From an uncultured delta proteobacterium (GTDB taxonomy: Bacteria; Myxococcota; Myxococcia; Myxococcales; Myxococcaceae), in the NCBI GenBank assembly GCA_963771175.1, contig CAVYSY010000057.1, positions 150,790 to 214,789 of the forward strand: a DNA stretch of 64,000 nucleotides, given 5' to 3'. Below, piece after piece: positions 53,135 to 57,600 of the stretch (position 1 is the first letter of the stretch; the number at the start of each line of letters is the position of its first letter). The notes under the pieces were generated by a model. It was not told the DNA's origin. It ran no database searches and saw nothing but the letters and a program-made list of their open reading frames with translations. Made by a program: the position numbers and the translations under genes.

Positions 53135-56100
53135 ATGAAGCCCCTGGTGGCGATGCGCAGTGAACCGGGTTCCACCCTGATGGACCTCCTGCGGAAGAGG
53201 GCTCACGAGCAGCCCTCGCGCCGCGTCTTCACCCTGCTCGAGGACGGCGAGACGGAGACGCTGCACCTGGACTTCGCCGGGCTGGACCGACGGGCCCGGG
53301 CCATCGCCGCCACCCTCCAGCGTCATGCCGCGGTTGGGGAGCGCGCCCTGCTCCTCTACCCCCACGGGCTGGACTACGTCGCCGCCTTCTTCGGAGCGCT
53401 GTACGCGGGAGTCGTGGCGGTGCCGGTATACCCGCCGGACCCGACCCGACTGAACCGGACGCTGCCGCGGCTGCGGGCCATCGCCCGGGACGCCCAAGCC
53501 ACCCTGGTGCTCACCACGAGCGCCATTCGCGAGCTGATGGACGGGCTCGCCCGCCATGCGCCGGAGCTCGCCGCGCCGCGGTGGGTGGCCACCGACGAGC
53601 TCGTCCCCGAGGTGGAGCAGGAGTGGCGGCCTCCGGAGGTGACACCGGACTCGCTCGCCTTCATCCAGTACACCTCGGGCTCCACCTCCGAGCCCAAGGG
53701 CGTGCTGCTCACCCACGCCAACCTGCTCCACAACGAGTCCCTCATCCAGCGGATCATCGGCAGCACCGAGGACTCCGTGGGCGTGAGCTGGCTGCCGCTG
53801 TACCACGACATGGGGCTCATCGGCTGCGTGCTGCAGCCGGTGTACGTCGGCTTCCCCATCGTCCTCATGCCGCCCGAGGCCTTCCTGCAGAAGCCGCTGC
53901 GCTGGCTGCGGGCCATCTCGCGCTACGGCGGCACCCACAGCGGCGGGCCCGACTTCGCCTTCGACCTGTGCGTGCGCAGGGTGTCCGCCGAGCAGCGTGA
54001 CGCGCTCGACCTGAGCACCTGGCGCTGCGCCTTCAACGCCGCCGAGCCCGTGCGCGCCGACACCCTGGAGCGCTTCACCCGGCACTTCGCCCCCAGCGGC
54101 CTCCGCTCGGACGCGCTGCGCCCGCTGTACGGGATGGCCGAGGCCACGCTGATGGTGACGGGCAGCACCCAGGGCTCGCGCGGGACGGTGCGCACGGTGG
54201 ACGGCGCGGCGCTGGAGTCCTGGTGGGTCGTCGAGCTGCCCGAGGGGACTCCGGGCTCGAGGCGCCTGGTGGGCCTGGGCCGCCCCTGGCTGGAGCAGCA
54301 GGTCGTCATCATGGACCCCGTCACGCGCACCCGCTGCGCCCCGGACCGGGTGGGCGAAATCTGGCTCGCGGGCCCCAGCGTGGCCCAGGGCTACTGGAAC
54401 CGCCCCGAGGAGACCGAGCACACCTTCCGCGCCCTGCGCGCCGACACCGGGGAGGGCCCGTACCTGCGCACGGGAGACCTCGGCTTCCTCCAGGAGGGCG
54501 AGCTCTTCTTCGCCGGCCGCCTCAAGGACCTCGTCATCATCCGCGGCCGCAACCACTACCCCCAGGACCTCGAGCGCACCGTCGAGGAGAGCCACCCCGC
54601 GCTGCGCCCCGGCTGCGGCGCCGCCTTCTCCGTCGACTCCGGGCAGGAGGAGCGTCTCGTCATCGTCCAGGAGGTCCACCAGCGGCACGAGGACGCCAGC
54701 TTCGAGGAGCTCGCCCACGCCGCCCGGCAGGCCGTGGCCGCCCTCCATGGCATCCAACTCGACACGCTGGTGCTCATCCGCCAGGGCACCATCCCCAAGA
54801 CATCCAGCGGGAAGATTCAGCGCCACGCCTGCCGGCAGGACTTCCTCGCGGGCACGCTGGAGCTCCTCCACACGGCCCGGCCCGTGCTCCCTCGCGCCGA
54901 GCCCACCGACGCGAGCCCCTCCGCCTTCCTGCGCGAGCAGCTCGCCCGGCTCATCGGCATCGTGCCCGAGGCCCTGGACCCCACCCGCACCCTCGCCGAG
55001 CTGGGGCTGGACTCGATGCGCCAGCTCGAGTTGCAACAACTCCTGGAGAGCCGGTACGGGCTCGGGCCAGGCCATGAGGAGCTGCTGCGCCACCCGCTCG
55101 GACAGCTCCTGGAGCAGCTGGGCACGCGCAAGCCGCGCGCCGAGGAGGGACCCTTCTCCATCGCCTGGGACGTGGCGCGTGATGCCCCCGCGCTCTGGCG
55201 CCACCTGCGCGAGACCGAGCCCTGGGTAGCCGACGCGCTGGAGGGGATGCGGCGGAGTCTCCCCGTGCCGCCCACCAACGGCGTCTTCGAGTCCGAGCGC
55301 TTCTTCCGCCCACAGGGACACTTCCGCTCCTTCTACCGGCGCGGGCCCGGAGAGAGCGTGCTGGCCATCAAGGGCGCGGAGGTACGGTGCGAGGACCAGG
55401 TCGGCTTCCTCCAACTGATGCAGCAGCGGCTCTTCGAGCGCTTCGCGAAGCACTCGGTGACGAACACGCTGGAGTACTTCCTCATCCAGGAGCGCAAGGT
55501 GCCGGGAGCGCTCACGCTGCCCGAGGCGCTCACCGAGGCGCGACGCGCGGCCGAGCTGCAGGGCCGCTTCCTGGAGGAGTACGGCGAGCCCGGGGGCGTC
55601 CCCGTCCCGCTGCTGGTGGTGCGCTGGTCCGAGGAGGTGGTGGCGCGCTTCCGGGCCCGGCTCCTGCCGCTGCTGTCCGGCCACTCGCTGAGCATCGCCG
55701 AGGGCGAGCTGGGTGACGGGCTCGCCTGCTACGTGTACTGGTTCCCCAAGGCGCCCTTCCCGCGCGTGAGCCACTTCGCCGGCTCCCTGGCCCAGGAGAG
55801 CCAGCGCACCGGCTCGGGTGGCTTCACCAACACGCGCCTCATCTACGCCACCCTCAAGCACAACCTGGACCCCGAGGCCGTCGTCGACTCGTGGGTGCGG
55901 CTCGTCGCGCGGATGCTGCTGCTCGGCTACTTCCCCAGCGACATCCAGCACTTCAAGAACGGGCAGTGTATCGAGCCGCAGAACGTGCTCCTCAACGGCA
56001 CCTTCGCGGACATCGACTCCGTCATCCCCATGCGCCAGCTCGGGAGCGACCGGCGAGTTCTACGCCAGCTTCCTCGCCATGCTGAACCTGCTGGCGAACA

Positions 56101-57600
56101 CCGTCCGCGTCTTCCTCACCGCCGAGAGCAACGGCACCACCACCCTCCCCAGCCCCTTCCCCCACCAGTTCCAGCGCCCCGACTTCCTGGAGATGCTCTC
56201 CGTCCTCCACGTCTGGGAGCGCCTGAAGGTGCACCTGCGCGAGCAGCGCCCGGGCCTGCGCGGCACCCTGGACCCGAGGCTCGAGGAGCTCGTCTCCTCG
56301 CGGCTCTCCTTCCCCGTCCTCTTCGAGAAGGTGCTGTTCTCGCTCTACTACGCCGGGCCCACCCTGCCCGAGAGCGCCCTGCACCTGCTCAGCATCGCCG
56401 ATGTCTACAGCGACGTGGGCTCGGAGGAGCGCCGGCCCTCGCGCAAGGTGGAGTACAGCCCCAGGCTCTCCGTGGACGCGGCGGCGCTCGCCACCCTGCC
56501 CCGCTCCTTCCTCGAGCAGTTGCGGCTCTCGCCCCGCGAGTTCATCCAGGATTGCCTCCGGGGAGAGGCATCACTCGTCACCGTGTACGAGACGTTCCTC
56601 GGCCGCATCGGGCTCATCGTGCTCCCGCTGGAGGACGCGACGCTCTACGTGGACCCGCGACGCACGGTGGAGGCCGTCGTCCGGGGGCTCGAGGAGGCCG
56701 CGCGACTGGGCGCCGATACCGTGTCCCTCACCGGCCTCATTCCCTCGGCCACGGACTACGGGCACGCGGTGAGGGCGGCCACCGCCGAGCGCTCCGGACT
56801 GCCGAGGCTCACCACCGGCCATGCCACCACCGTCGCCTCCTTCGTGATGATGGTGGAGCAGGTGCTGAAGGTCTCCGGGCGCGGGCTGGAGGACGAGCAC
56901 CTGGCGCTTCTCGGCGTGGGCTCCATCGGCACCTCCATCCTGCGGCTGCTGCTCCGGACGCTGCCCCACCCGCGTGGGCTCCAGTTGTGCGACGTGCCCG
57001 CCAAGCGCGAGCACCTGCTGCGGCTGAAGGAGGAGCTGCGCACGGAGTACGGCTTCCGGGGAGAGGTGAGCGTGGTGGCCATTCCCGGGGCCGAGGCTCC
57101 CGCCGAGGTGTACGAAGCCTCCGTCCTCCTCAGCGCCACCAGCGCCGCCAACCTGCTGGACGTGGAGCGGCTCCGGCCGGGGACGCTCGTAGTGGATGAC
57201 TCGGCGCCGCACTGCTTCGACCCGCGCCGCGCCATCCGCCGCTTCCAGGAGCGGCGGGACGTCCTCTTCACCGAGGCGGGCGCCATCCGCAGCCACCGAC
57301 CCATCCAGGAGATTCGGGAACTCTCCTTCGCCACCGGCTGGGACCACAAGGTGCGCGCGGCCCTCAAGCTGCTGCACCCCGCCGAGGACACCGTCATGGG
57401 GTGCGTCTTCTCCAGCATCCTGAGCTCACGCTTCGAGGACGCGCCATGCCTCGTGGGCACGCCCACGCCGAGGGACCTCGACCTGCACTACCGCAAGCTG
57501 CGCGAGTCTGCGCTTCGAGGCCGCGAGGCTCTACCTGGAGGACCACGTCCTCGATGAGGATTTGGTGGGCATGTTCCGCGCGCGGTTCGGCACGAAGTAG
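53135..57600 (+). CDS. Multidomain FAAL - ACP - unknown (SelO/kinase-like) - acyl-ACP-reductase-like protein, about 1487 aa after removing two +1 indels
   Basis: FAAL: QYTSGST, WLPLYHDMGLIG, YGMAEATL, RTGDLG, PKTSSGK; ACP: LGLDS; C-terminal SLTGLIPSATDYG, TTGHATT, GVGSIG, DDSAPHCF; indels near 56052 and 57507. Confidence 0.85.

Follow-up and report, generated by a model that had tools for sequence, protein, structure and literature searches.

A 64,000-nucleotide stretch of DNA from an uncultured member of the Myxococcaceae (contig CAVYSY010000057.1, positions 150,790 to 214,789; hereafter the window) carries a gene of four modules, in which a domain of about 410 residues, here called X, follows an acyl carrier protein (ACP) and precedes a terminal reductase. 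Structure prediction indicates that X very probably has a protein-kinase-like (PKL) fold, with SelO as its nearest solved relative, and the Lys, Asn and Asp residues expected of a kinase-type nucleotide site are invariant among its homologues. An earlier note, made from the DNA letters alone, had proposed a divergent SelO (YdiU)-like transferase embedded in a carrier-protein enzyme, and this interpretation is supported by the present analysis. All positions refer to the whole window; residue numbers from the X alignment (82 rows) are lower, K75 for instance being K750 of the window protein. The gene and its modules are as follows.

53135..57600, + strand: four-module gene, fatty-acid--AMP ligase (FAAL) - ACP - X - AAR-like reductase; about 1487 amino acids if read through, in three frames in the assembly
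53171..54880, + strand: FAAL domain; Pfam AMP-binding 4.2e-65 (residues 24-425) and AMP-dom_DIP2-like 3.1e-12
54926..55096, + strand: ACP domain; Pfam PP-binding 7.3e-08, residues 602-658
55148..56375, + strand: X domain, predicted SelO-like protein-kinase-like fold; about 410 residues, frame 1 to 56050 and frame 2 from 56055
56472..57600, + strand: AAR/PigE-N-terminal-type NAD(P)-dependent thioester reductase; GVGSIG at 56913, PDB and NCBIfam matches

The fold of X was predicted with AlphaFold2 from two sequences that are 32-34% identical to each other. Model 1 was made for the X domain of an orthologue from the same genus (7 sequences; pLDDT 78.2, pTM 0.81) and model 2 for a stand-alone paralogue encoded in the same genome as the window (107 sequences; pLDDT 94.4, pTM 0.92). 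A Foldseek search of the PDB with model 1 gave 13 matches at E ≤1e-3, nine of them SelO/YdiU and four SidJ chains (best E 8.1e-5, TM-scores 0.31-0.44); the nine include 6iii, deposited as an 'uncharacterized protein', whose length and aligned range are those of the YdiU entries. With model 2, ranks 1-9 were all occupied by SelO/YdiU (E 1.2e-4 to 9.8e-4). SelO/YdiU came first for both models also with a second aligner, VIA, about 3.3-4.0 Z units over the best ordinary kinase and 3-4 Z over the remaining matches, among which the NIS synthetases were next. The models thus place X among proteins of the bilobal PKL fold, and the kinase-like fold that the earlier note had offered as a check on its proposal was recovered with two models and two aligners.

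X resembles the SelO/YdiU AMPylases (PF02696; PDB 6EAC, 6K20, 6LNA and 9JYM) in its nearest fold, in the invariant Lys, Asn and Asp and in the missing Asp of the HRD motif. It differs from them in size (about 410 residues against about 470-490), in having extra helices after strand beta3 and between strands of the N-lobe, and in its setting, X being found in a megasynthase or in biosynthetic clusters whereas SelO is a housekeeping stress gene; SelO residues ~23-338 are matched, and the C-terminal part of SelO is left uncovered. The NIS synthetases (AcsD, SbnC, AsbB and IucA) score below SelO in Z, are 550-600 residues long and are matched only in their C-terminal two thirds, from residue ~170-210 onward. 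The Legionella glutamylase SidJ, a kinase fold that adenylates Glu, was found by Foldseek with model 1 at E 1.7e-4 to 5.4e-4, but is unlike X in being about 740 residues long and calmodulin-dependent. Although prominent in Foldseek for model 1, SidJ was absent from the 50 best rows in each of three VIA runs and for that reason was not relied on. ATP-grasp and GHMP folds, which had been considered before modelling, were not among the structural matches listed.

The earlier note had quoted five strings as SelO-like motifs, and all five lie in one frame of the + strand that opens at 53123, between 55307 and 56020. These strings, and the conserved residues in and between them, are listed here.

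55307-55330, + strand: quoted motif RPQGHFRS
55307..55327, + strand: R729-x3-H733-x-R735 motif at the place of the Gly-rich loop; R in 80/82, H in 73/82 and R in 82/82 members
55358-55381, + strand: quoted motif VLAIKGAE
55370..55372, + strand: K750 (AIKG), candidate beta3 Lys; 82/82, where strand 71-75 of model 1 ends
55505-55537, + strand: quoted motif GALTLPEALTE
55763..55765, + strand: R881, after the last N-lobe strand; 82/82, candidate counterpart of SelO Arg176/Arg183
55895-55933, + strand: quoted motif VRLVARMLLLGYF
55961-56020, + strand: quoted motif GQCIEPQNVLLNGTFADIDS
55982-55984 and 56009-56011, + strand: N954, candidate catalytic-loop Asn, and D963, candidate metal-binding Asp; both 82/82, 9 residues apart

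In an alignment of 82 family members (A3), whose identity to the first row ranges from 24 to 84%, nine positions are invariant: R60, K75, G76, P152, Y197, R206, N279, G284 and D288 (including R735, K750, R881, N954 and D963 of the window protein). The proposed Lys, Asn and Asp are thus retained in every member. At least 90% of the members keep R54, E78, E115, K117, P119, E126, P154, L155, G191, W249, G260, P263, G272, G285 and S291. N279 and D288 lie in a region of short strands behind the long helix 242-258 of model 1; kinases have their beta3 Lys, catalytic-loop Asn and DFG Asp at the places that K75, N279 and D288 take up in this model. We infer that the three would share one pocket. Candidates for an Arg pair at the gamma-phosphate are R54, R60, R206 and R159, the last kept in 46/82 members. 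In human SelO the Mg ligands are Asn339 and Asp348, with Val334 at the place of the catalytic Asp of protein kinase A (PKA), as given by Dudkiewicz 2012 (PMC3281104). The spacing of 9 between the Asn and Asp of X is the same as that between these two human residues. The corresponding spacing in PKA is 13. For SelO of Pseudomonas syringae, the review PMC8097203 describes a phosphate and metal site made up of Lys113, Glu136, Arg176, Arg183 and Asp262, with a flipped ATP and a missing HRD Asp. In our alignment of 18 SelO sequences from Myxococcota genomes (A4) the residues K109, E132, R172, R179, N249 and D258 are invariant, and their Lys/Glu/Arg/Arg/Asp spacing equals that of the P. syringae residues. 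The P. syringae Asn is presumably Asn253.

X might instead be a conventional kinase for small molecules or peptides, binding ATP in the usual orientation and passing the gamma-phosphate to, for example, a lipid hydroxyl or a released fatty alcohol. We consider this unlikely. No catalytic-loop Asp is conserved at positions 268-278 of the 82 sequences, where Asp occurs in at most 10/82 at any position; X has no Gly-rich loop but the R-x3-H-x-R motif in its place; and the nearest structures are nucleotidyl-transferring or adenylating proteins that score, as given above, well over the best ordinary kinase.

The placement of X beside SelO has its limits. The relationship is a distant one, given the low TM-scores and the roughly 150 residues left out of the structural alignments. 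The helix-C Glu is the weakest of the proposed motifs: GALTLPEALTE holds E801 (75/82) and E805 (64/82), whereas E790 and E753 outside it are better kept (81/82 each); the candidates for this residue are E78, E115 and E126 of the alignment. Finally, comparison of the X profile (82 sequences) with the SelO profile (18 sequences) by hhalign was not significant (probability 0.27%, E 0.23). The sole local match in this comparison sets WVRLVARMLLLGYF...QNVLLNGTFADLDS on helix E and the catalytic loop of SelO, with Asn paired to Asn and Asp to Asp. With lax (low-mact) settings the match, at E 0.2, extends colinearly to pair K75 with the SelO Lys (K109 of A4) and R60 (R735) with the Arg of the SelO GDGR motif, both at near-zero confidence; the global mode of hhalign was meaningless for X and SelO. 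The PF02696 model gave no match at E ≤0.1 for the window protein, nor at E ≤1 for 14 family representatives. The claim that the SelO motif order exceeds chance is hence borne out by residue conservation and by the predicted fold, but not by sequence statistics alone, where the hhalign score is insignificant and no Pfam match exists.

Since its profile-profile similarity to SelO is not significant, X is regarded as a new family rather than as a member of SelO, and by sequence comparison it is a family of its own, outside Pfam and NCBIfam. Searches of both collections with X and family representatives returned nothing below E 0.01, and 14 sampled members were without a Pfam match below E 0.02. 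The siderophore-synthetase model IucA_IucC (PF04183) matched only one of 14 scanned members (P0062, E 0.19). PDB matches of X by sequence or profile were at chance level, the candidates TM1457 (E 0.18) and CAM1 (E 0.38) being rejected on that account.

In the language-model features of the ESM Atlas, the X domain of an orthologue was nearest to 26 unnamed clusters (0.96-0.98 for three of them), followed by a cluster named 'MchC protein' (0.94). This cluster has 182-187 of 256 features in common with X and carries PF02696 on 35% of its members, a likeness of features that was obtained without alignment. For the stand-alone paralogue, the SelO family was found on 25 of the 30 nearest named matches. 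MchC/MceJ form a distant SelO branch according to PMC3281104, and MceIJ/MchCD join a siderophore to the C-terminal region of a microcin, as stated in PMC7472721. Being the nearest named clusters to X by these features, MchC/MceJ offer an example of natural-product tailoring by a SelO-like protein, which we take as a lead only; they come from other phyla and other types of cluster than X. MceIJ is said, by Nolan and Walsh, to need ATP. No HlyC-like MchD/MceI partner (PF02794-type) is annotated beside the window gene, three fused orthologues or six stand-alone relatives.

The likeness to SelO could be incidental, X being a very divergent kinase-fold protein or a relative of the NIS-synthetase palm with a generic order of motifs. 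This seems to us very improbable: SelO/YdiU ranked first with either aligner and either model at a distance of 3-4 Z from the rest, the Asn-Asp spacing of 9 is that of SelO, and the language-model features point to MchC/SelO clusters.

The earlier note had also described the proposed transferase as embedded in a carrier-protein enzyme, and the predicted kinase-fold domain does lie between an ACP and a reductase. Although the reading frame opens with GTG at 53123, the ATG at 53135 fits the MKP start of the orthologues. On the FAAL, the NCBIfam models for fatty-acid--AMP ligase PRK05850 (5.8e-139) and FadD32 (3.5e-133) both score under their curated cut-offs, because they describe other whole proteins; the same reason applies to the PigE model on the reductase (5.6e-14, under cut-off). 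The Ser of the ACP motif GLDS is Ser631 (codon 55013-55015). The reductase, made up of the C-terminal 370 residues, matches PDB 9e4x and 9e4s, both named 'Amino acid adenylation domain protein', at E ~2e-74, and the N-terminal part of PigE more faintly (PDB 4ppm, 6.4e-09). A thioester is likewise reduced by PigE, according to the abstract of PMC8341465. Other solved relatives of the reductase that are as close as 9e4x and 9e4s, at E ~2e-74, are 9e50, 9e56 and 9e4u; a literature search with subscription papers outside its scope found no paper behind any of these five structures. With a FAAL-type adenylation domain, a PP-binding domain bearing the GLDS Ser and an AAR/PigE-type reductase bearing GxGxxG, the protein belongs to the class of FAAL-ACP-terminal reductase enzymes.

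Unbroken orthologues of 1456-1541 amino acids were found in Archangium, Vitiosangium, Melittangium and Cystobacter. The closest of these, P0005, is 95% identical to the window protein over the X region, and the others are 44-88% identical to P0005 over their full length. Two orthologues from the second genus, P0011 and P0015 (L004:2368-2607 and L005:1291-1530), have an ACP that is truncated after helix II with the GLDS serine kept; Pfam PP-binding was not recorded for P0015.

X is an insertion between the carrier and the reductase. A search found 119 longer proteins that bear the AAR-like reductase, which caps many nonribosomal peptide synthetase (NRPS) C-A-PCP and polyketide synthase (PKS) KS-AT-ACP proteins, and the 15 of these 119 that are closest to the window gene (49-96% identity) are X-containing orthologues, 14 of which were also found in the search with the X region. 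P0264 (1090 amino acids) is a plain FAAL-ACP-reductase protein, 41% identical to the window protein in the FAAL and 35% in the reductase, in which the carrier and reductase are separated by about 57 residues against about 458 in the window protein; X, about 410 residues long, is hence a module inserted at this point. Such X-less FAAL-ACP-reductase proteins and NRPS/PKS modules have the same carrier and a terminal reductase of 35-48% identity, and none of the non-myxobacterial proteins with an AAR-like reductase has room for X. The same reductase also ends a cyanobacterial NRPS named VatR in UniRef.

An exhaustive HMMER search with a seven-sequence profile detected the X family in 379 representative clusters (50% identity) at E ≤1e-3, and in 331 at 1e-10. 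The names on record for its members are 'hypothetical protein'. Among the 150 members listed, 146 are shorter than 500 amino acids and are therefore stand-alone proteins. Its distribution in genome samples is patchy: a single-protein query detected it in 8 of 251 genomes from the order, and the profile in 16 of 401 from the phylum. Two genera have the fused form, the genus of the window in 8 of 12 genomes and the other in 2 of 7. In a midpoint-rooted FastTree phylogeny of 82 members the three fused rows form one clade (SH-like support 96) within the stand-alone members, which in a quick tree of this kind is no more than a hint at a single capture of X into the megasynthase.

The stand-alone relatives look, from the genes around them, like tailoring proteins of natural-product clusters. 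In one locus (L011, G170:C1, 6193-10630) an X relative begins at the stop of a full-length LanB dehydratase gene (PF04738 and PF14028); a cupin_8 gene lies upstream and a P450 gene follows downstream. This may be a cluster for a ribosomally synthesized and post-translationally modified peptide (RiPP). Elsewhere, an X gene is divergent from a radical-SAM/SPASM gene (L061, G313:C111, 8782-11380), another is directly downstream of a gene for an AsnB-like amidotransferase with KS, SDR, polyketide-cyclase and P450 genes nearby (L060, G409:C12, 8436-11716), and yet another sits after a GNAT gene and a 106-residue open reading frame (ORF). N-terminal extensions of 225-370 residues without a Pfam match are present in three members (L057, G335:C739, 25-2307; P0143; P0169), so that other fusions of X exist. 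The genome of the window itself encodes the stand-alone paralogue of model 2 (G000:C50:4653-5882; L010, L002), a protein of 406 residues that is 38% identical to X, its gene being divergent from a PRMT-like methyltransferase gene and upstream of an M28 peptidase gene. A canonical SelO is also encoded there (G000:C48:27867-29114, L017; PF02696 469.9 bits); X is therefore no replacement for SelO.

Given its missing HRD Asp, X could be a dead pseudokinase that serves as a scaffold, a dimerisation module or an ACP-docking module between ACP and reductase. The X-less FAAL-ACP-reductase proteins, in which reduction needs no X, agree with this, and the truncated ACP of two orthologues hints at an unusual interplay of domains. 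We nevertheless hold it to be improbable, because no fewer than 80 of the 82 members, at identities down to about 25%, retain K, N, D and three Arg, and because most members are stand-alone proteins from varied biosynthetic contexts with no fused ACP.

In the window assembly the gene is broken by two frameshifts, at the following places.

56052, + strand: first frameshift, one base more than in relatives; base lacking in 4/4 sequencing runs (X20, X1, X2 and X3)
57506..57507, + strand: second frameshift, one base more than in relatives; letter 57506 or 57507 lacking in 4/4 runs

After ...DSVIPMRQLGSD (...MRQLGSD, ~56050) the first frame becomes an Arg/Pro/Ala-rich nonsense sequence, and the protein resumes as EFYASFLAMLNLL... 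in the frame of 55818. An orthologue-like C-terminus, LRFEAARLYLEDHVL..., is encoded by the third frame, which ends in ...MFRARFGTK and the stop of the gene at 57598-57600. The 'corrected residues' of the earlier note were justified, as the intact orthologues span the break near 56050; they span the second one as well. The four public runs, from two studies, gave contigs that are 95-99% like the window; they represent relatives of a different strain, which do not prove an assembly error. On either side of the first break, the pieces of X are 91.4% (301 amino acids) and 94.4% (107 amino acids) identical to residues 1-301 and 303-409 of the orthologue domain L003:1522-2748.

These breaks may mean that the gene is a pseudogene in the source strain, with X inactive here whatever its ancestry, a question separate from the other alternatives. 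The frame is interrupted by two single-base insertions, and immediately downstream lies an apparent insert of about 1.8 kb with a lower GC content, as a pseudogene might have it. There are, on the other hand, zero stops in the X pieces, which are 91-94% identical to the orthologue, and similar splits affect at least five more of the window's genes, in an assembly that is 81.7% complete by marker genes at a size of 9.8 Mb. For these last two reasons we favour, with good confidence, indel errors of the assembly, and regard a pseudogene as unlikely. The other split-frame sets of ORFs lie at 6435-9654, 13983-16762, 19875-23374, 44914-47845 and 59436-63537; they overlap, share a strand and have a coding-like GC3. 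Such pairs and triplets suggest many further single-base frameshifts in the assembly and fit with its marker completeness.

The genes next to the fused gene, in a region where G+C around the gene is 70-74%, are these.

50615-51784, + strand: Zn-dependent alcohol dehydrogenase (Zn-ADH), Pfam
51881-52963, + strand: polysaccharide-lyase-family protein, Pfam
59436..63537, + strand: Ser/Thr protein kinase - AAA - TPR gene, in two frames here; Pkinase 1.9e-34, AAA_16, TPR

The Zn-ADH and polysaccharide-lyase-family genes also precede the orthologues in three other loci (L014, L015 and L016), with an extra esterase gene in the last two, and unbroken versions of the kinase-AAA-TPR gene, encoding 1370-1380 amino acids, are downstream of the orthologues in L015 and L016. 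The fused gene and these kept neighbours all run in one direction and lie close together. In the window, the megasynthase is separated from the kinase-AAA-TPR gene by about 1.8 kb of DNA (57600-59436) of lower GC (0.62-0.66 against ~0.71), with two ORFs on the - strand (57625-58407 and 58404-59078) that gave a faint Arm-DNA-binding match (E 5e-4) and no other family match. This segment looks like an insertion, because the same two genes are about 160 bp apart in the relative L016.

In the mechanism we propose for the fused protein, the FAAL would adenylate a fatty acid and load it onto the ACP, and the C-terminal reductase would release the lipid as an aldehyde, a possible substrate for further conversion by the adjacent Zn-ADH. 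X would be an active transferase that depends on ATP and Mg. In it, the phosphates would be bound by the Lys, which is invariant, together with three Arg that are invariant or nearly so, and the metal by the invariant pair of Asn and Asp. Catalytic activity of X with a nucleotide is fairly likely. X would transfer AMP and release pyrophosphate rather than transfer the gamma-phosphate. The acceptor may be the ACP itself, the alcohol or aldehyde arising from the reductase and ADH, or a hydroxyl or carboxylate on the lipid, either while this is bound to the ACP or once it has been released. AMP transfer is favoured because X, like SelO, is without an HRD-type Asp; the wealth of invariant Arg, combined with the missing general-base Asp, speaks for a triphosphate that is buried as in SelO, with AMP transferred and pyrophosphate released; and the next structural groups after SelO, the NIS synthetases and, by Foldseek, SidJ, are adenylating enzymes too. 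We put the transfer of AMP rather than phosphate at somewhat short of an even chance. We infer nucleotide binding, ATP orientation, AMP transfer and the substrate alike, and the overall reading of X as an ATP-dependent, probably AMP-transferring tailoring domain is about evenly balanced between right and wrong.

Acting in cis, X might work on the ACP-tethered or freshly reduced lipid and make, for example, an alkyl- or acyl-AMP or a phosphoester as an activated intermediate. X would then be the first kinase-fold AMP-transferase or adenylating domain placed in cis in a carrier-protein assembly line, accompanied by an unrecognised family of ATP-dependent tailoring enzymes, about 380 clusters strong, in RiPP and other natural-product pathways, and forming a biosynthetic branch of the SelO world beside MchC/MceJ; we put this forward only tentatively, as a doubtful but possible outcome. 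No paper describing this architecture or family came up in a literature search that had subscription journals and KINtaro outside its scope. What is new here is a kinase-like family nearest to SelO in a new fusion, kinase-fold AMP transfer itself being already known.

That a kinase fold can move AMP instead of phosphate was learnt from SelO-type enzymes, of which the known examples comprise housekeeping stress enzymes, a small number of effectors and the poorly understood MchC/MceJ. To these X adds an unannotated family of 379 clusters with a predicted SelO-nearest fold, the same catalytic residues and biosynthetic contexts. If X is active, it would represent a type of chemistry new to the tailoring of lipid and peptide natural products, and the fused protein would provide a system in one polypeptide, substrate delivery included, in which the choice between phosphate and AMP by a kinase fold could be followed. 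An active X would also justify a new family model for genes that are now labelled 'hypothetical' or 'AMP-binding protein'.

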